64,000 nucleotides of DNA. It comes from Bacillales bacterium UBA4278. Its GTDB lineage: Bacteria; Bacillota_I; Bacilli_A; RFN20; CAG-826. Below, piece by piece: positions 1-55,575 of the stretch (within the stretch, counting starts at the first letter, position 1; every line of letters begins with the position of its first letter). The notes beneath the pieces are model-generated. The model searched no databases. It was not told the origin of the DNA and worked only from the letters and a program-made list of their open reading frames with translations. The translations under genes were made by a program, and so were the position numbers. The stretch is from contig DGVS01000005.1 of assembly GCA_002395065.1 (NCBI GenBank), forward strand, positions 394 through 64,393. The letters run 5' to 3'.

Positions 1-200
1 TCTCATACAAAAAAATGTGGGTTCTTCTTATTGAAAAAGGGATATCTCCTGTCGATTTAAGAAAAGACCTTAATATCGCTACAGGTACAATGACTAAATT
101 AAGAAGAAATGAAGAAGTTGCATTATCGGTATTGCTTCGAATTTGCGAATACCTTGATTGCAACATCGGTGATGTTTGTGATTTTGTTAAAAAAGACTAG
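1..200 (+). CDS. XRE/Cro-C1-type helix-turn-helix regulator, possibly 5'-truncated by the window edge
   Basis: ORF 15..200, with the frame open back to base 3. GISPVDLRKDLNIATGTMTKLRRNE...LLRICEYLDCNIGDVCDF fits the short XRE/HTH_26 pattern. Only 3 residues precede the first helix if the M at 15 is used as the start. Confidence 0.7.
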   Translation, partial: SYKKMWVLLIEKGISPVDLRKDLNIATGTMTKLRRNEEVALSVLLRICEYLDCNIGDVCDFVKKD

Positions 201-216
201 TAAAGGAGATTAAATT

Positions 217-1062
217 ATGTACTGTCCAAACTGCGGAAAAAAGTTAGATGATGACGCTTTGTTTTGCGATGAATGTGGAACAAAAATCGAAAGACAAACA
301 CCATCTGCCGAACCTACACAAAAAGTTCAAGAAACTCCTGTGGTTGAAGAAGAACCAGCAAAAGAAGTAATTAGAACTGAGCCTGTGGAAAAAAATCAAC
401 CTGAGCAAAGGAAAGCAAACCTAAAAGAAGGACGCTTACATAAATGTCCCAATTGTGGGGAACTAATAAGCTTTGACGATGTTAAATGTCCTTCTTGCGG
501 ATATGAAATTAGAGATAGAGAAGTTAACGCTTCTGTTCAAAGTCTATTTGATAAAGTTTTAGCTACAGATGATTTAGATAAAAAAATAGAGTTAATCAAA
601 ACTTTCCCGATTCCTAATACTAGAGAAGATATTCTTGAGTTCATGCTATTAGCAAAGTCCAATTTTGACGCTAAATACTATGCAACCAACAAAAATGTTG
701 ATAGCGTCTCTAGTGCTTGGTTATCAAAAATCGATCAATGCTATGCAAAAGCAAAAATTTTGCTCCGTGATAAAAGAGATTTAGACACCATAGAAGATAT
801 ATACTCGGGAATTCATAAAGAAACTAAGAACATTCAAAGAAGCAAACTTCTTATGATTATTGGTGGCTTTGTCGCAATCATCGCTTCTGTTATTTGTATC
901 GTTACATTTAATGTAGAAGGCAACACCCTTTTATCGCTGCTGTTTATCGCGTTGCTTGCTGCCGGTATTGTTTTGCTCGTATTTGGTTTCAAGAAGAAAA
1001 AAACTAATAAGCAATTAGAAGAAGAACGCGCTGCTAAAGCCGAAAAAAAGAATAGGAGATAA
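217..1062 (+). CDS. Double zinc-ribbon membrane protein (YdjG-like context)
   Basis: Two CxxC-x(10-13)-CxxC zinc ribbons (CPNCG..CDECG and CPNCG..CPSCG). Two C-terminal hydrophobic helices (LLMIIGGFVAIIASVICIVTF and LLSLLFIALLAAGIVLLVFGF). An AGGAG lies upstream of the ATG at 217. Confidence 0.6.
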   Translation: MYCPNCGKKLDDDALFCDECGTKIERQTPSAEPTQKVQETPVVEEEPAKEVIRTEPVEKNQPEQRKANLKEGRLHKCPNCGELISFDDVKCPSCGYEIRDREVNASVQSLFDKVLATDDLDKKIELIKTFPIPNTREDILEFMLLAKSNFDAKYYATNKNVDSVSSAWLSKIDQCYAKAKILLRDKRDLDTIEDIYSGIHKETKNIQRSKLLMIIGGFVAIIASVICIVTFNVEGNTLLSLLFIALLAAGIVLLVFGFKKKKTNKQLEEERAAKAEKKNRR

Positions 1063-1067
1063 TGTTT

Positions 1068-2381
1068 ATGAGTATTTTCGCTAAGAAAAACAAAACTGGC
1101 GGTTTAGCTGATGTAATCCGCTGTGACCAAGAGGATTATCTTATTTGGAAGTGGCATCCAAAAGGTGCTGCAGAAGGTGACCTCAAAAGAGATACTGCAA
1201 TTAGAACTAATTCGGTATTAAGGGTTAAGGATGGTGAAGTAGCTGTCTTTGTTTATAAACAAAAAGATGGTCATAACCAAGATTTCATCGTCGGTCCACA
1301 TGACGAAACAATAAAAACTAAAAACTTCCCAGTTTTGTCATCTATTATCGGCTTGTGGTACGAAAAGGACACACCATTTCAAGCTGAAGTTTTCTTTATT
1401 AACTTAGGACGTGCATTACAGGTTAAATTTGGTGTTCCGTATTTTGATATCGCTGATCCTAGATTCCCTGATTTTGAAGCACCAGTCGCTGTGCGCGGCA
1501 CACTTACTTTCAAAATTGAAGATTACGAAGCTTTCGTTAAGCATTATCAACTTGCAACGTTTGAGATGGATGACTTTAAGAAAAAAGTCACAGACGCAAT
1601 TGCTAGGTATGTAAAAGACTCAGTTGCTAAAGCGCCAGCTGAAAACGATATTCCGTTAATTCAAATCGAGTCAAAAATAGATCTTATCAATGATAAGGCT
1701 GAATTGAACGTCAAAGAGAGACTATACGAAACATTTGGCGTTACAGTCACTGGTTTTGATATTAGCGCAATTGAAATAGATAAAGAATCAGAAGGATATC
1801 AAGAGCTCAGAAACATTAGCAAAGGCATGGCTGGTAGAAAAGCTGAAATGGATATACAACATTACGAAGAATCCCTCCGCATTCAAAGAGAAGAAGGGCA
1901 ATATGCCATGCACATGGGCACTAAACAAACAAATCTTGGTGCTTATGAGACTGAGGTTAAAGGAGATGTTGGCGTTGAAAGCGCAAAAGCTCTTGGGAAA
2001 ATGGGTGAAAATGGCGCAGGCCGTATAGATATTGGCGGCGATGGTGGCCAAGGAGGAGGCGCTGGTTTTAATCCTGTCTCTTTGATGGCTGGCTTAGCTG
2101 TTGGTGGCGCTGTCGCCAAAAACATTGGTGGCACTTTAGATCAGACTATGAATGCATCTGGAAATGTGCCTCCTGCAATTCCTACTGTTACTTTCCATGT
2201 TGCAATTGATGGCAAAGCGGTTGGACCATTTGAAACTGCAAAAGTCATCGAGATGATTAATAGTGGTCAAGTTTTGAAAGATACACTAATTTGGAAACAA
2301 GGTACTCCAAACTGGGTAAAAGCTGGAGAATTGAAGGAATTTAGCGATTCGTTCCCACCAGATTTACCACCAACTAAATAG
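1068..2381 (+). CDS. SPFH/Band-7 superfamily protein of the YdjI (COG4260, 'virion core protein-like') type with a Gly-rich linker and a C-terminal GYF_2-like domain
   Basis: The N-terminus ADVIRCDQEDYLIWKWHP...VLRVKDGEVAVFVYK is typical of YdjI-type SPFH proteins. It is followed by a Gly-rich linker (GGDGGQGGGAGF). The C-terminus DGKAVGPFETAKVIEMINSGQVLKDTLIWKQGTPNWVKAGELKEF resembles GYF_2/DUF4339. The ORF opens at 1062, but the ATG at 1068 has better spacing to the AGGAG at 1054-1058. Confidence 0.65.
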   Translation: MSIFAKKNKTGGLADVIRCDQEDYLIWKWHPKGAAEGDLKRDTAIRTNSVLRVKDGEVAVFVYKQKDGHNQDFIVGPHDETIKTKNFPVLSSIIGLWYEKDTPFQAEVFFINLGRALQVKFGVPYFDIADPRFPDFEAPVAVRGTLTFKIEDYEAFVKHYQLATFEMDDFKKKVTDAIARYVKDSVAKAPAENDIPLIQIESKIDLINDKAELNVKERLYETFGVTVTGFDISAIEIDKESEGYQELRNISKGMAGRKAEMDIQHYEESLRIQREEGQYAMHMGTKQTNLGAYETEVKGDVGVESAKALGKMGENGAGRIDIGGDGGQGGGAGFNPVSLMAGLAVGGAVAKNIGGTLDQTMNASGNVPPAIPTVTFHVAIDGKAVGPFETAKVIEMINSGQVLKDTLIWKQGTPNWVKAGELKEFSDSFPPDLPPTK

Positions 2382-2397
2382 TCTTTGGAGATTAAAT

Positions 2398-2772
2398 ATG
2401 AAAAACAAAATGGTTTTTATAGGAATAAATGCACTTCTCGTTGTTACTACTGGATTAATTGTTGGATTAGTTTTTGCAGACACTATTTTTCAAGCACCAG
2501 CTGGGATCACTGCTTTTGCTTTCCTACTTACAGCCCTTGCAATCCCAAGTTTGATTTATGTTTTTAATTCAAAATTAAATACAGGTGGACGAATCATTTC
2601 ATCATTTTTCGTTATCGCAGAAGTCATATTGAATATCGTTTTTCTATGCATTCCAAAAGCAGACATTAAAATATATGCAATCATTCAATTGGCAATGATT
2701 GTGATAACGCTTGCGGCATTCCTAATAATAATAGGACTTTTTAAAGATAATAATGCAAAGGAGAGTAATTGA
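2398..2772 (+). CDS. Small ~4-TM membrane protein
   Basis: 124 aa, almost entirely hydrophobic helices. A GGAG lies 8 nt upstream. It sits 16 nt after the SPFH gene and overlaps the next gene. Confidence 0.55.
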   Translation: MKNKMVFIGINALLVVTTGLIVGLVFADTIFQAPAGITAFAFLLTALAIPSLIYVFNSKLNTGGRIISSFFVIAEVILNIVFLCIPKADIKIYAIIQLAMIVITLAAFLIIIGLFKDNNAKESN

Positions 2773-2773
2773 T

Positions 2774-3679
2774 ATGGGATTATTTGGTAAGTTTCTTGGT
2801 GCGACAAAAAACGATGCAAAAGTGGCTAAATATGAATATAAAAAGGCCAAATTAGAAACCAAAGAAAGAAAAAAAGAAGCTGCACGCAATGAAAAGCAAG
2901 GTCAAATTAAGGACATACAAGAAGGAGCTCAGCTTTCTTTAAATTATGCTAAAAATAACTATGAAAGCATGTGTGAAAAAGTTAGTTCTCTCTATAATGA
3001 AACATCAGAATTAATCACAGTAATTAATGATCTAAAATCACGTAAGCTTTCTAGAGATGAGAAGAAACAACTAGTAGAATCGCAAGAAGAAGCAACAGAA
3101 AATTTGGAATATCTTTATTTATCGAAAGATTATTTTATTTTCTTGACTAGACTAGCCAATGGAATGGCTCTTAAAAATGAGCAAATGCTACTCTTAGTAA
3201 AATTTTGTGCGTTTTTTGATGGCGTTGATGTTCTGTCGGACGAAGACGATGAAGATGTGGATGATTCTCTTTTGGCTGATTTCAAAGAAATAGGTAGAGA
3301 TTTTAAAGAGATGTTTGTATCTTCTAAGAAACAATTATCTGATTTTAATCTTCGTGATTATGTGGAAGAAAAGTATTGCGATGAAATCAATGATTTGAAA
3401 TTGCCAGAAATAGAAACTGCTCTAGATTCCTTTGAAAAACTAGCAAATAAAGAAAATACAAGCAAAGTAGAAGAACCAATTAGTGGCTCTCATCAAGAAA
3501 GTGGAAAAACTGTAGAATGCCCTAATTGTCACTGTTCCTTACCAGAGACTGCAAAGTTCTGCCCAAAATGCGGAACTAAAATAGAACCACAAGGTCCCGC
3601 CTTTTGTATGGAGTGCGGGAGTTCGTTACGTCCTGGAGCTAAGTTCTGCCCAAAATGTGGCGCAAAAATTAATAAATAG
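2774..3679 (+). CDS. Coiled-coil / acidic-block protein with two C-terminal zinc ribbons (possible PspA/ESCRT-III-like helical protein)
   Basis: The ORF opens at 2753, but AAGGAGAG at 2758-2765 favours the ATG at 2774 (MGLFGKF...). The sequence runs from a K/E-rich helical N-terminal half, through the acidic block SDEDDEDVDDSLLADF, to CPNCHC..CPKCG and CMECG..CPKCG zinc ribbons. Confidence 0.6.
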   Translation: MGLFGKFLGATKNDAKVAKYEYKKAKLETKERKKEAARNEKQGQIKDIQEGAQLSLNYAKNNYESMCEKVSSLYNETSELITVINDLKSRKLSRDEKKQLVESQEEATENLEYLYLSKDYFIFLTRLANGMALKNEQMLLLVKFCAFFDGVDVLSDEDDEDVDDSLLADFKEIGRDFKEMFVSSKKQLSDFNLRDYVEEKYCDEINDLKLPEIETALDSFEKLANKENTSKVEEPISGSHQESGKTVECPNCHCSLPETAKFCPKCGTKIEPQGPAFCMECGSSLRPGAKFCPKCGAKINK

Positions 3680-3795
3680 CTTAAGAGAAAATTCTAGATC
3701 GTTCTAATAGAAAGCTTTATTTAATTGTTGCATTGTTCATAATTTTGCGTAAAAATTGAAGTGCGAGTTCAATATTTACGAAAGGATACCTATTT

Positions 3796-5031
3796 ATGAT
3801 TGAAAGGACAATAAAAGAATCAATTCTTAAATCAATCAAAAATAAGCCAATTACTTTGATTACAGGAGCAAGGCAAGTTGGTAAGTCTACTTTATGTGGA
3901 GAAATAAAAAGAGAATTAAATTATGGATATGTGTCGCTTGATAATTTAAGAGAAAGGGAAACTGCAATTAAGGATCCTGAACTATTTCTTGCACTACATA
4001 AGGCGCCGCTTATTATTGATGAAGTGCAATATGCTCCGAAATTGTTAGATGTCATTGAATCAATTGTTAACAAAGTGAAATTTGAAGGCGGAAACAATAA
4101 AGGAATGTACATTTTAACCGGCTCTCAAATATATAGCCTAATGGAAAATGTCTCTGAATCACTTGCTGGTCGTGTTTCAATCATAGAAATGTCTCCTCTG
4201 TCACTAAGAGAAATAAGAGGATTAAAAGAAACACCTTTTGTTATTGATCCTGTTATTAATAAGGAAAGAAACGAAGAGAACCCAGTCAGTATTGATGAAC
4301 TATTTGATTATGTAGTAAGGGGTTTTTATCCAGAACTATACGATAACAAAGATTTAGATACAGATAATTTTTATTCTGATTACGTTAAAACATATATTGA
4401 AAGAGATGTTTCGCAAATTATAAACTTGAATGAAAAGCTAAAGTTCCAAAGATTTATGGAAGTTCTCGCTTCGCTGACAGGTGAAGAATTTGTCGCCAAT
4501 AATCTCGCTAAGAGTATAGGGGTTTCTTTGCATACAATAGACTCTTGGCTAAGTGTTTTGGTTGCTGGCAATATTGTCTATTTATTAGAACCATATAATG
4601 AGAATTCAACACTAAAAAGAGTTGTAAAACGTCCAAAAATCTATTTTTACGATACTGGACTAGCAGCTTATTTGGCTAGACTAAGTAATAAAGAAGTTTT
4701 AAAAAATAGTATCTTCTCTGGAAGATTTATTGAGACATTCATCATTAATGAAATAATTAAATCATATAAAAATCATAATAAGAGAACTAATTTCTATTAT
4801 TATCGTGATATTGATCAAAAGGAAATCGATTTAATTATTCTTGATGGTGGGATTCTTCATTTTATTGAATGTAAAAGCGGTATTTCATATTCAAAAAAGG
4901 ATGTTTCTGCATTTAAAACATTGGAATTAAAATCGAAATATAAAGTTGGTCCTTCAAGCATTGTTTGTTTAACGGATGTCGTTTATTCTATTGATGAGAA
5001 TATTTATGCTGTTCCTATTGGCGCTATTTGA
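3796..5031 (+). CDS. AAA+ ATPase of the AAA_14/DUF4143 family (COG1373-like)
   Basis: Walker A motif TGARQVGKST and Walker B-like LIIDEVQ. The C-terminal half has the typical DUF4143 architecture (..FYFYDTGL..). Confidence 0.8.
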   Translation: MIERTIKESILKSIKNKPITLITGARQVGKSTLCGEIKRELNYGYVSLDNLRERETAIKDPELFLALHKAPLIIDEVQYAPKLLDVIESIVNKVKFEGGNNKGMYILTGSQIYSLMENVSESLAGRVSIIEMSPLSLREIRGLKETPFVIDPVINKERNEENPVSIDELFDYVVRGFYPELYDNKDLDTDNFYSDYVKTYIERDVSQIINLNEKLKFQRFMEVLASLTGEEFVANNLAKSIGVSLHTIDSWLSVLVAGNIVYLLEPYNENSTLKRVVKRPKIYFYDTGLAAYLARLSNKEVLKNSIFSGRFIETFIINEIIKSYKNHNKRTNFYYYRDIDQKEIDLIILDGGILHFIECKSGISYSKKDVSAFKTLELKSKYKVGPSSIVCLTDVVYSIDENIYAVPIGAI

Positions 5032-5318: not shown

Positions 5319-5393
5319 ATGATTAAAAGAGAAAAATATTTACAACAAATTCGCAGATTTTACGAAACCAACATTAGCACTCTTACAGTGTAA
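5319..5393 (+). pseudogene. 24-codon remnant resembling the N-terminus of a DUF4143/AAA_14 ATPase
   Basis: MIKREKYLQQIRRFYETNISTLTV* begins like this ATPase family (MI.R.KYL..I..F) but stops before any Walker A motif. Confidence 0.4.
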
Positions 5394-5397
5394 GTGC

Positions 5398-5425
5398 TTG
5401 ACTCTCTCTCTCTCTCTATTAAAAT
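5398..5425 (+). promoter_or_regulatory. Sigma-70-like promoter TTGACT-16-TAAAAT for the downstream lipoprotein gene
   Basis: TTGACT at 5398-5403 and TAAAAT at 5420-5425. The ATG is at 5444. Confidence 0.5.
5402..5417. repeat. (CT)8 dinucleotide microsatellite
   Basis: Read directly as ctctctctctctctct. It occupies most of the spacer of the putative promoter. Confidence 0.95.
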
Positions 5426-5443: not shown

Positions 5444-6031
5444 ATGAAAAAGCCACTTCTGTTTTATCTATCTGTTTTATCTAATTGTATTTTTTTGTTA
5501 TGTGGATGTGTTTCAAAAAAGAGTACCAAACAAAGCGTAACGTTCTTTGATGGCATTTATCGATTCCAATCAATCTCGTTGAAATATGAAGACCTTCAAG
5601 AAAGAGAACAAAGACGCATTTGGTATGAAGAAGAAAGACAAATGTGGCCTGAAGATTATCCTCAAACCTTTGATGAGGCATATCCAATTCAATTATATCT
5701 TCGTGCCGGTCAGACATACAAAGTTGAAGGTAATACAACATATATTCCTGAAAACTTTATTGAATGCACGATTTCGGAAAGCGTTTTTAATTTAAACGTT
5801 CGAGCAGATTTGTTTGATCCGAATAGCAAAGCAAAATCATATCAAGGAACATTTATTTCTGATAAATCAAATTTTACTATCGAATTAACGGATTGGGTCG
5901 AATCAATATCAAATAAATTTAAATTACTTTCTGGTAGTGGGTACGTTCAAAACGGAAATCAATTTTTAAAAGCAAAGGTATACCAAGGAGTTGGATATTC
6001 TGAAGAATATGTTTTTAAAAGAGTTTCTTAA
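5444..6031 (+). CDS. Lipoprotein, unknown function
   Basis: Signal peptide MKKPLLFYLSVLSNCIFLLCGC with a lipobox-like L-C-G-C. Confidence 0.7.
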   Translation: MKKPLLFYLSVLSNCIFLLCGCVSKKSTKQSVTFFDGIYRFQSISLKYEDLQEREQRRIWYEEERQMWPEDYPQTFDEAYPIQLYLRAGQTYKVEGNTTYIPENFIECTISESVFNLNVRADLFDPNSKAKSYQGTFISDKSNFTIELTDWVESISNKFKLLSGSGYVQNGNQFLKAKVYQGVGYSEEYVFKRVS

Positions 6032-7290: not shown

Positions 7291-7343
7291 TTTAAATATT
7301 CAAATAAAACAAAAATATTATTTTGTATATAATATGGTTGAAC

Positions 7344-7865
7344 ATGGAACGCCTACAGTTTTTACTTACTAAACTGCAAAATCATGAACTAGATTATTTT
7401 GATGAGTTTTATGATTTAACCCACCGAAAAGTCTACTTTATGGCCTATTCTCTTCTAAGAGATGAAGCTAGCAGTGAAGACATCACCCAAGAGGTTTATA
7501 TGAAAGTTTTGGAAAAACCAAAACGCATTAAACCTGATGGAAACATCATGTCTTATCTGATTGAGATGAGTAAAAACATTACTCTTAACTATCTAAAGAA
7601 AGAGCAACGTAGTAGCGTCGAGTACATTGAAGAAATCAGTGGAGAGGATGATCCTGATATCACCAATCTAAAAGATACTGAGGTCTTCCAACTCATGAAG
7701 AAGAAGCTCAGTGATAAAGAATTCACGATCGTTATTCTTCATGTCGTCAATGATCTTAAACATGACGAAATCTCTAAATTACTAAAAATACCTTTAGGTA
7801 CTGTTACATGGACCTATAATAACGCGATTAAAAAACTATCGAAAGGAGGAAGTAAAAATGAATGA
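7344..7865 (+). CDS. ECF-type RNA polymerase sigma-70 family factor
   Basis: Region 2-like DITQEVYMKVL and a region 4 HTH (DEISKLLKIPLGTVTWTYNNAIKKL). The track ORF starts at a TTG at 7323, but the ATG at 7344 (MERLQF) is more plausible. There is no SD. TATAAT at 7328-7333 sits only ~11 nt upstream. Confidence 0.85.
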   Translation: MERLQFLLTKLQNHELDYFDEFYDLTHRKVYFMAYSLLRDEASSEDITQEVYMKVLEKPKRIKPDGNIMSYLIEMSKNITLNYLKKEQRSSVEYIEEISGEDDPDITNLKDTEVFQLMKKKLSDKEFTIVILHVVNDLKHDEISKLLKIPLGTVTWTYNNAIKKLSKGGSKNE

Positions 7866-8832
7866 TGTTGAAAAGAAAATTCTTGAAGCAGGAAGGCTTC
7901 AAACAATTTCTAAATCTAGCGAACAAATCCTAGAAAGTTTTGAAGTGAAACATAAACGCCGCATTCAAAAGAGATTTTTCTTCATCCCTACGATTACAAC
8001 CCTCCTTGCTTCAGCAACTGCTGTTGCCGTAATTTTTGCCTTATCGCCACGTCCAATTCATATTCAAGGACAAACCAAGGGTTTTAACGATGGTTCAACT
8101 GTCTTAACTTCTGTTGTCGGTAATCTTTCCTTACATTACTACACCCAAGACGTTAGTAATGAGCAAAACCGTATTTTTGCCGCTCCAATCGTTCAAGAAG
8201 AATTTAACCAAGTCGCGATGGATGTGGATGCGGTTTATAATCCATACTCATATTACTATGTTCATACTAAAGGACTTAATTACACCTTTGATTCATCTGC
8301 CTTTAGTTATGATGATGTGAATTACCGATATGAATTATCGGTCAATAACACAACAGTTTATTTAAAAGATAATCTCTCGGAAATCAAATCTAAAGGTGTC
8401 TACGAAGGGTTGATTCGTGTCAGCGATACTTGCTATCCATGTGAGATTAATGCCCAAGTATCTCATAACGTCGTTTCAACTACGTTTACTTATCGTGTCT
8501 CTTCCTATATTCATTCTTTGACAACAAAGACAACCGATGAAGTCACAACGATTAGTCACCAAATCAAGATCAATGATGACATTTCTGAAATTAAGAGTGT
8601 TAATCTCCTTAATAAAGGAAAAAGTTTCTCCGCATCGTTTAAAAACGATAATCGATTATCTGAAGTAACAAAAGAACGTTCCTTCTCCTATACAAGTGGT
8701 GAAGATTTCATTAGTGTTGACTACCGCAAAAACGAAACCACATATTCTGGGATCAAACTTCGTGTCGATACAAGCACACGCGCTAGAAAACACGTCTACT
8801 CCTTTGAAGGAGTTACAGATGTTATTCTTTAA
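7858..8832 (+). CDS. Putative anti-sigma factor: single-pass membrane protein with a large extracytoplasmic domain
   Basis: 8-nt overlap with the sigma gene (ATGAATGA). A short cytoplasmic N-terminus precedes one TM (FFFIPTITTLLASATAVAVIFAL) and ~260 aa of Ser/Thr/Tyr-rich external domain. No recognisable zinc anti-sigma motif. Confidence 0.5.
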   Translation: MNDVEKKILEAGRLQTISKSSEQILESFEVKHKRRIQKRFFFIPTITTLLASATAVAVIFALSPRPIHIQGQTKGFNDGSTVLTSVVGNLSLHYYTQDVSNEQNRIFAAPIVQEEFNQVAMDVDAVYNPYSYYYVHTKGLNYTFDSSAFSYDDVNYRYELSVNNTTVYLKDNLSEIKSKGVYEGLIRVSDTCYPCEINAQVSHNVVSTTFTYRVSSYIHSLTTKTTDEVTTISHQIKINDDISEIKSVNLLNKGKSFSASFKNDNRLSEVTKERSFSYTSGEDFISVDYRKNETTYSGIKLRVDTSTRARKHVYSFEGVTDVIL

Positions 8833-55469: not shown

Positions 55470-55575
55470 ATAAGCGTTGTCGCCTCACAAGCTACAACCG
55501 CATAGAAAAGGTAACTAACTTATTACTTATAGTAATAGACCTTAATAGCGAGTCTTGAGTGAGAAAGTCGAGGTA
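55470..55575 (+). ncRNA. Candidate ribosomal protein L21 leader
   Basis: About 110 nt of structured 5' UTR upstream of rplU-prp-rpmA. CCTCACAAG (55489-55497) can pair with CTTGaGTGAG (55553-55562). Such a leader is known in Firmicutes, but the match was not verified by a covariance model. Confidence 0.4.

Follow-up and report, generated by a model that had tools for sequence, protein, structure and literature searches.

The window examined here, which is the whole stretch of 64,000 nucleotides at positions 394 to 64,393 (forward strand) of contig DGVS01000005.1, comes from assembly GCA_002395065.1 of Bacillales bacterium UBA4278. Near its start lies a gene for a 301-residue protein that an initial annotation, drawn from the letters of the sequence, described as a possible member of the ESCRT-III/PspA superfamily fused to two zinc ribbons. 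The gene is real and conserved, has a strong ribosome-binding site and is tightly coupled to the gene upstream. Its product joins a helical domain of an apparently undescribed family to a double zinc ribbon, and homology to ESCRT-III or PspA is not supported. It is the last of five tightly packed genes on the forward strand:

15–200, forward: 61-residue Cro/C1-type helix-turn-helix (HTH) regulator, first gene of the cluster (Pfam HTH_26, E 1.8e-18)
217–1062, forward: 281-residue membrane protein with two N-terminal zinc ribbons (residues 1–25 and 75–98; Zn_ribbon_3, E 1.4e-16; DZR, E 3.8e-9), a P/E-rich linker, a helical region and two C-terminal membrane spans (spans read from the sequence)
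1062–2381, forward: 439-residue cytosolic SPFH protein with a Gly-rich linker and a C-terminal GYF_2 domain (Band_7_1, E 4.4e-19; GYF_2, E 8.9e-14)
2398–2772, forward: 124-residue small membrane protein with four hydrophobic spans (read from the sequence)
2760–2765, forward: Shine-Dalgarno sequence GGAGAG serving the ATG at 2774 (read from the sequence)
2774–3679, forward: the gene under study, 301 residues, helical domain of undescribed family plus double zinc ribbon (from the list of open reading frames, Pfam and homologue searches)

Anatomy and family of the helical zinc-ribbon protein

The open reading frame that ends at 3679 on the forward strand has two possible starts in the list of open reading frames, 2753 and 2774. 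The second is taken as the true start because GGAGAG stands 8–13 nt 5' of it, because MGLFGK, the N-terminus that it yields, is also that of most homologues, and because the upstream gene stops beside it: the TGA of that gene occupies 2770–2772 and a single base separates it from the ATG (start region AAAGGAGAGTAATTGATATGGGA). The alternative at 2753 was rejected; the Shine-Dalgarno sequence would fall within its coding part, and most homologues begin MGLF.

The protein divides into six parts, for which confidence in the AlphaFold2 models is given as the predicted local distance difference test score (pLDDT):

2774–2806, forward (residues 1–11): conserved hydrophobic N-terminal peptide MGLFGKFLGAT, a putative membrane-docking element (MG[LIF][FLIV] in 34 of 43 representatives)
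2807–2923, forward (residues 12–50): basic K/E-rich helix with the motif KNDAKVAKYEYKKAKLE (net charge +5; helical in the model)
2924–3235, forward (residues 51–154): conserved helical core, with a hairpin (51–88 / 94–128) and a third helix (135–149) (pLDDT 92–98)
3236–3289, forward (residues 155–172): acidic, low-confidence linker SDEDDEDVDDSLLADFKE (net charge -9, family median -5; pLDDT 53–68)
3350–3460, forward (residues 193–229): two conserved helices completing the domain, FxFxxYLxxYxxxIxxxxxPDIxxxxxxF (pLDDT 95–98)
3509–3676, forward (residues 246–301): double zinc ribbon with four CxxC knuckles (Pfam DZR and Zn_Ribbon_1; cysteines nearly invariant in 55 sequences)

The C-terminal part belongs to well-known families. 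Both DZR (PF12773; 42.7 bits, cut-off 27.3, E 6.1e-11) and Zn_Ribbon_1 (PF13240; 52.9 bits, cut-off 25, E 2.7e-14) exceed their curated cut-offs, and the CxxC pairs (C249/252, C263/266, C278/281 and C292/295) form two consecutive ribbons of two knuckles each – a double zinc ribbon. While these last 56 residues are standard DZR, their setting is not: such ribbons are usually N-terminal on a membrane protein, as in the 281-residue protein of the same operon, whereas here they are C-terminal on a soluble helical domain. For residues 1–245, Pfam, NCBIfam, PHROGs and PADLOC gave no match.

The AlphaFold2 model of the full-length protein has a pLDDT of 75.7; that of residues 1–244, built with an alignment of 43 sequences, reaches 87.3, with a predicted template modelling score of 0.79. 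Helices are modelled at residues 12–61, 63–88, 94–128, 135–149, 193–206 and 213–229, and the predicted fold is a compact all-helical core, made up of the hairpin and three further helices and split by the acidic, apparently disordered linker. Residues 1–11 have low pLDDT and are coil in both models. Conservation across the family is concentrated in the core motifs LxYLYLsKDYF and KFxPFFDGxxVL, where Y113, L114, Y115, L116, F144, F148 and G150 are nearly invariant, and in the region of residues 193–229, with F191, Y196, Y201, P211 and F220. Net charge runs from +6 (residues 1–50) through -9 (155–172) and -6 (193–229) to +4 in the zinc-ribbon tail, which is basic again. The hydrophobic segment at residues 113–148 (YLYLSKDYFIFLTRLANGMALKNEQMLLLVKFCAFF) was considered as a membrane span and rejected, since it has K, D, R, N, E or Q every few residues and the model places it in the end of one core helix and in the next helix.

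In the representatives that lack MG[LIF][FLIV], the protein begins MS or MN and its next two residues are hydrophobic. Because this N-terminal motif is conserved across the family, it is under selection and not a product of chance.

Much of the initial annotation agrees with these data: its coordinates and start are correct, as the Shine-Dalgarno sequence, the homologue N-termini and the upstream stop attest; the peptides that it quoted are present (QIKDIQEG at residues 44–51, the hydrophobic segment, and the acidic block SDEDDEDVDDSLLADF at 155–170); and the two ribbons, the long helical N-terminal part and the passage from basic to acidic charge are all found.

Relatives of the helical domain are few. 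A word-indexed search with residues 1–245 returned 40 clusters of 41–93% identity, all metagenomic, unnamed and ribbon-bearing. An exhaustive HMMER profile search, made with the N-terminal alignment against 1.84 billion representative proteins, returned 77 clusters (at 50% identity), mostly of 240–325 residues and otherwise fragments, plus one protein of 804 residues; a further search from the most divergent members gave five proteins only and no additional relatives. The 55 near-full-length members that were aligned share a single architecture – MG(L/I/F)(F/L/I), a K/E-rich helix of variable length, the core motifs, an acidic region, FxFxxYLxxYxxxIxxxxxPDI and, after a linker, the two ribbons. 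In the genome scan, relatives occur in metagenome-assembled genomes (MAGs) labelled uncultured Firmicutes, Erysipelotrichaceae, Bacilli, Candidatus Enteromonas and Acholeplasma. As judged from these searches, the helical domain appears to be a previously undescribed small family, without a Pfam model and confined to gut-associated Bacilli.

Near-identical contigs of window positions 1–3700 are present in gut metagenomes. Many runs from bovine gut, manure, wastewater, landfill and freshwater share about one in four of the words sampled from the same segment, and in three of these runs (X4, X6, X9) the contigs represent relatives of 95–99% identity, each spanning part of the operon. The organism group is widespread in habitats linked to animals and to waste. 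Rfam matches the window only once, at a ribosomal protein L21 leader (55486–55565, forward, 44.2 bits), an element typical of Firmicutes that agrees with the labels of the related MAGs.

The operon and its relation to known SPFH modules

Genomic context was read from 12 loci viewed singly and from one genome scan. The five-gene order recurs around relatives of 50–56% identity in four loci (L001, L003, L005 and L010), while the genes further downstream differ. At a fifth, L019, where the helical zinc-ribbon protein is 45% identical, the HTH_26 gene, the Band_7_1 and GYF_2 gene and the helical protein gene are still adjacent, and the ribbon membrane protein is replaced by a 497-residue protein with DZR and DUF6591. 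The Band_7_1 protein, which has no hydrophobic span, is present in all six operon-type loci (these five and the window). The HTH_26 gene also comes first in L001, L003, L005 and L019. The four-span membrane protein, for which Pfam (E<=1), NCBIfam and PADLOC gave no match, is encoded directly 5' of the helical protein gene in L001, L003, L005 and L010 and is missing in L019. Five more distant members (L013, L014, L018, L021 and L023) stand alone amid unrelated genes. Within the window, the first ribbon of the 281-residue membrane protein is 57% identical over 28 residues to the first ribbon of the helical protein.

Two of these loci hold observations of their own. In L010, a Candidatus Enteromonas MAG, the homologue (4039–4952) is broken some 45 codons in, by a frameshift or by stop codons, with the rest of the operon intact, the result of either an assembly error or decay to a pseudogene. 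In L014 an open reading frame of 59 residues with a single hydrophobic span (3758–3937) lies 30 nt 5' of the stand-alone member, and may be a small membrane partner that recurs outside the SPFH operon.

The closest known counterpart is the pspA-ydjGHI operon of Bacillus subtilis. There, the soluble SPFH protein YdjI is recruited by the membrane proteins YdjG and YdjH, and YdjI in turn is required for PspA membrane foci (PMC8581546; bioRxiv 10.64898/2026.02.06.704340); pspA is the first gene of the operon (PMC8581546). Of the products of that operon, YdjG carries two N-terminal zinc ribbons, YdjH is a TPM-domain membrane protein, and the band-7 protein has a zinc ribbon at its C-terminus (PMC11237479). 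YdjGHI has since been renamed SamGHI and found to act also as a stress sensor, the complex affecting transcription globally (bioRxiv 10.64898/2026.02.06.704340).

Six loci keep the combination that marks a PspA-YdjGHI (SamGHI)-type SPFH membrane module, a soluble Band-7/SPFH protein together with a membrane protein bearing a pair of N-terminal zinc ribbons. As in B. subtilis, one operon encodes a soluble Band-7/SPFH protein, a two-ribbon membrane protein, a second membrane protein and a soluble helical protein, and zinc ribbons are carried by two separate components. The two operons differ in five respects. The helical protein gene is last in the window and first in B. subtilis; the SPFH protein of the window ends in GYF_2, whereas that of B. 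subtilis ends in a zinc ribbon, which in the window is found on the helical protein; the second membrane protein is a 124-residue four-span protein rather than one with a TPM domain; the ribbon membrane protein of the window has no NTF2-like domain; and an HTH_26 regulator heads the operon, in place of control by sigma-W. PspA_IM30 and TPM have no Pfam match in any of the five operon proteins. The window operon is thus a new variant of the YdjGHI-type SPFH module and not a new kind of system.

LiaI and LiaH of B. subtilis are a small membrane anchor and a PspA homologue. The window resembles this pair in having a gene for a small polytopic membrane protein immediately 5' of one for a soluble helical protein, with which it is probably translationally coupled. 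It departs from the pair in that the 124-residue protein is dispensable in L019 and its soluble partner is not a detectable PspA homologue; given that the 124-residue protein has no Pfam match at E<=1, no LiaI/LiaF-type model fits it.

An anti-phage role for the operon was considered and rejected: the operon matches no defence-system model in PADLOC and has no support from PADLOC or PHROG. Directly 3' of the helical protein gene (3796–5031, forward) is an ATPase gene with AAA_14 and DUF4143 that matches the PADLOC candidate defence model PDC-S01 over its full length (E 2e-102). Its position after the operon is shared by L003 but not by L001 or L019, and this gene is therefore placed outside the conserved cluster.

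A 26-nt sequence at 5392–5417, AAGTGCTTGACTCTCTCTCTCTCTCT, has the form of a promoter (TTGACT-(CT)8-TAAAAT) and precedes a lipoprotein-like gene at 5444. In public contigs (runs X1, X6 and X9) it is also found about 33 nt before window position 1, ahead of the HTH_26 gene, and therefore the same dinucleotide-spacer promoter flanks a block of 5.4 kb. The two copies could point to common regulation or to phase variation by way of the (CT)n spacer, or they could mark where an inserted block ends on either side.

A possible role beside the SPFH protein

In the maintenance of bacterial membranes, SPFH/flotillin-like proteins and PspA-type effectors have a central part. Because the window operon repeats the logic of YdjGHI with different parts, we propose for the helical zinc-ribbon protein a role as adaptor or effector: it would be a cytoplasmic, membrane-peripheral adaptor or scaffold of the SPFH module, a tentative proposal that seems nearly as likely to hold as to fail. 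The hydrophobic N-terminal peptide and the basic helix would attach the protein to the inner face of the membrane, and the zinc ribbons and helical core would serve as modules for protein docking or oligomerisation. In the subfamily to which the window protein belongs, the KNDVKxAKxExxKxK helix would couple it to the cytosolic SPFH(Band_7_1)-GYF protein, itself recruited by the zinc-ribbon membrane protein and, usually, by the small four-span membrane protein; contacts mediated by the ribbons may link the helical protein to the membrane component. The acidic linker might conceivably fold back on the basic helix, and the small HTH_26 regulator would control the whole set. On this proposal the five genes would form a membrane-stress or membrane-organisation module, in which the helical protein takes the effector or adaptor place that PspA has in PspA-YdjGHI (SamGHI). 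The likeness to PspA is plausible as an analogy of role; descent from PspA or ESCRT-III is not supported.

The part assigned to the N-terminal helix draws on its distribution. The motif (S/T)KNDVKxAK(L/Y)E(L/Y)xKxK, at about residues 11–30 (shortened in L001), is found in some 24 of the 55 representatives. Among the loci viewed, KNDVK is present in all six with the SPFH operon (the window, L001, L003, L005, L010 and L019) and in none of the five that stand alone, a correlation across 11 loci that are a small sample and are not phylogenetically independent. This pattern suggests that the KNDVK helix is the element tying the family to the SPFH-GYF protein.

Besides the size of that sample, several points weigh against the adaptor proposal. 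About half of the family is not beside any SPFH gene, and the core function therefore cannot depend on SPFH. The same fact bears on the statement in the initial annotation that the gene occupies the position expected of a PspA partner of YdjI: linkage in one operon to a YdjI-type SPFH gene and a zinc-ribbon membrane protein stands, while the gene is last rather than first and about half of the family has no SPFH neighbour. The hydrophobic moment of the N-terminal peptide is moderate (0.26–0.37). Membership of B. subtilis YdjI in Band_7_1, the family of the window SPFH protein, is our assumption. Membrane binding, zinc binding, contact with the SPFH protein and a part in stress responses are all putative properties of the protein.

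The locus is a compact, conserved variant of the SPFH module: its helical partner cannot be recognised as a PspA, the zinc ribbon sits on that partner and no longer on the SPFH protein, and a short helix motif tracks SPFH linkage. It thus offers a concrete and testable candidate for the interface between an SPFH protein and its client. The hosts are uncultured, genome-reduced Bacilli of gut, rumen and manure, related to Erysipelotrichaceae, Candidatus Enteromonas and Acholeplasma. If no link to SPFH exists, the protein is one more conserved hypothetical.

The protein might instead be a signalling or regulatory part that senses the state of the membrane or of the SPFH complex and controls the HTH_26 repressor, by a logic like that of PspA-PspF or of anti-sigma factors. 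An HTH_26 gene heads every operon-type locus, and an HTH gene lies just 3' of the member in L016; acidic disordered linkers and zinc ribbons are, we believe, common in proteins that bind regulators, and the global effect of SamGHI on transcription in B. subtilis (bioRxiv 10.64898/2026.02.06.704340) points the same way. That the stand-alone members (L013, L014, L018, L021 and L023) have no adjacent regulator, and that the sequence resembles no known anti-repressor, makes this reading unlikely.

Resemblance to ESCRT-III, PspA and Vipp1

That the protein is an extremely divergent member of the ESCRT-III/PspA/Vipp1 superfamily, polymerising on membranes and having gained a zinc-ribbon tail, was the suggestion of the initial annotation. 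Its helices can be laid out accordingly: MGLFGKF as H0, the hairpin of residues 51–128 as H1 and H2, residues 135–149 as H3, and H4 and H5 after the acidic linker. ESCRT-III-superfamily proteins share a five-helix core, in which H1 and H2/H3 form a characteristic hairpin and H1 is shorter than H2/H3 (PMC7619361); the size (about 245 residues), number of helices and hairpin of the model agree with this description. Indeed, the likeness to PspA, Vipp1 and ESCRT-III covers an all-helical domain of about 200–250 residues, a hydrophobic MG(L/I)F N-terminus, a helical hairpin, and a basic N-terminal and an acidic C-terminal half. It extends to operon context: in Firmicutes, B. subtilis included, PspA is likewise encoded with a soluble SPFH protein and with membrane proteins that carry zinc ribbons.

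The N-terminus is the most striking of these features. The first six residues, MGLFGK, are those of human CHMP3; the CHMP3 sequence compared is a full-length Snf7 match and also matches the CHMP3 chains of PDB, 3FRV being aligned from query residue 1. Escherichia coli PspA begins MGIFSRF (sequence verified at 100% identity), and Vipp1, with MGLFDRL, is likewise near. The initial annotation allowed that the CHMP3 identity might be coincidental. Chance is at odds with the conservation of the motif in the family; at the same time six residues are too short to be evidence of homology.

Sequence comparison places the superfamily at the level of noise. In Pfam the window protein has no match to PspA_IM30 (PF04012) or Snf7 (PF03357) at E<=1, nor to LemA or TelA at E<=1–10. 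When members were scanned singly, PspA_IM30, Snf7, LemA and TelA were absent among the 25 families listed, out of 49 for the 55 full-length members and 76 for the 43 N-terminal parts. Zinc-ribbon families were the only consistent matches of the full-length members; for the N-terminal parts the best-supported family among those listed was ZapG-like, in three members, the rest being scattered coiled-coil noise. A weak match to DUF6664 (E 0.003) was rejected, as it was shown by one of the 43. Although both families are very large, the profile search of 1.84 billion proteins drew in not one PspA-like or Snf7-like protein, and hidden Markov models built from 5 PspA and 6 ESCRT-III sequences matched none of the 217 open reading frames of the window.

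Profile–profile comparison, a check that the initial annotation had put forward, gave the same answer. With hhalign the family alignment (43 sequences) scored P 0.17 against PspA/Vipp1/LiaH (5 sequences) and P 0.18 against ESCRT-III (6 sequences), as against 0.21 and 0.32 for the respective reversed decoys. PspA against ESCRT-III, two families accepted as remote homologues and taken as the positive control, gave P 0.0047; because this pair stood clear of the decoys, relatedness of the PspA/ESCRT-III level is visible to the test with profiles as small as these. Each sequence in the reference profiles (5–6 sequences) was validated as a full-length Pfam match, and the small size of the profiles limits sensitivity; such a set was used because a search with E. 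coli PspA gave, among the 120 sequences listed, only enterobacterial ones of at least 86% identity.

Structural comparison, another check put forward there, showed a helical hairpin in the predicted structure and gave no significant PDB match. In Foldseek against PDB nothing fell below E 0.04 or rose above a template modelling (TM) score of 0.35; the matches were designed helical bundles, translin, HEPN toxins, syntaxins and archaeal CdvB/CdvB2. The closed form of CdvB (9s9j) was the best ESCRT-III match (E 0.35, probability 0.57, TM 0.24/0.32, root-mean-square deviation 14 A) and the best natural-protein match in both Foldseek runs (probability 0.38–0.57), but its superposition is no better than those of designed bundles, HEPN or syntaxin. 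PspA and Vipp1 entries are not among the top 50. The HEPN-like matches (TM 0.34) were rejected, the family having no conserved Arg/His motif. Against viral structures Foldseek found nothing significant, and a phage PspA/IM30 protein at rank 16 (E 0.92, TM 0.21) was dismissed as noise. In profile searches of PDB sequences the matches (GRK5, CagA, GpsB and the ATPase inhibitor IF1) all had E values of 0.035 or more and were set aside as noise. Nor was any unrelated family matched with confidence.

The anatomy also differs. The first helix of the hairpin, with its N-terminal extension, has 77 residues and the second 35, the reverse of the order in PMC7619361, and nothing in the PspA or ESCRT-III sequences used corresponds to YLYLsKDYF or KFxPFFDG. 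Thus, while the protein shares the MG(L/I)F start, the charge order and the hairpin, its similarity to PspA, Vipp1 and ESCRT-III by sequence, profile–profile and structural comparison is no higher than that of decoys or noise, and it has its own motifs, a C-terminal double zinc ribbon and a narrow range (77 clusters, in gut Bacilli). What resemblance there is concerns coarse general organisation only. Membership of the superfamily, even as an extremely divergent branch, is quite unlikely, and an ESCRT-III label is unjustified for annotation. We regard as very unlikely the fuller scenario, in which the family is a divergent ESCRT-III/PspA branch fused to a double zinc ribbon, recruited by the SPFH-GYF protein through its N-terminal helix and replacing PspA in genome-reduced gut Bacilli.

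A zinc-ribbon protein associated with nucleic acids or with transcription or translation – as the JGI name of homologue P0251, 'RNA polymerase subunit RPABC4 / Spt4', and the occurrence of such ribbons in RNA polymerase subunits and ribosomal proteins (weak NCBIfam and Pfam matches) might imply – is highly improbable, since that name derives only from a generic ribbon match, the family-specific conserved part is the helical domain, the membrane protein of the operon carries the same type of ribbon, and the operon partners are membrane and SPFH proteins.

Further along the window, two overlapping open reading frames (7323–7865 and 7858–8832, both forward) look by eye like an extracytoplasmic-function-type sigma factor and a membrane-anchored partner, and are noted as candidates for such a pair.

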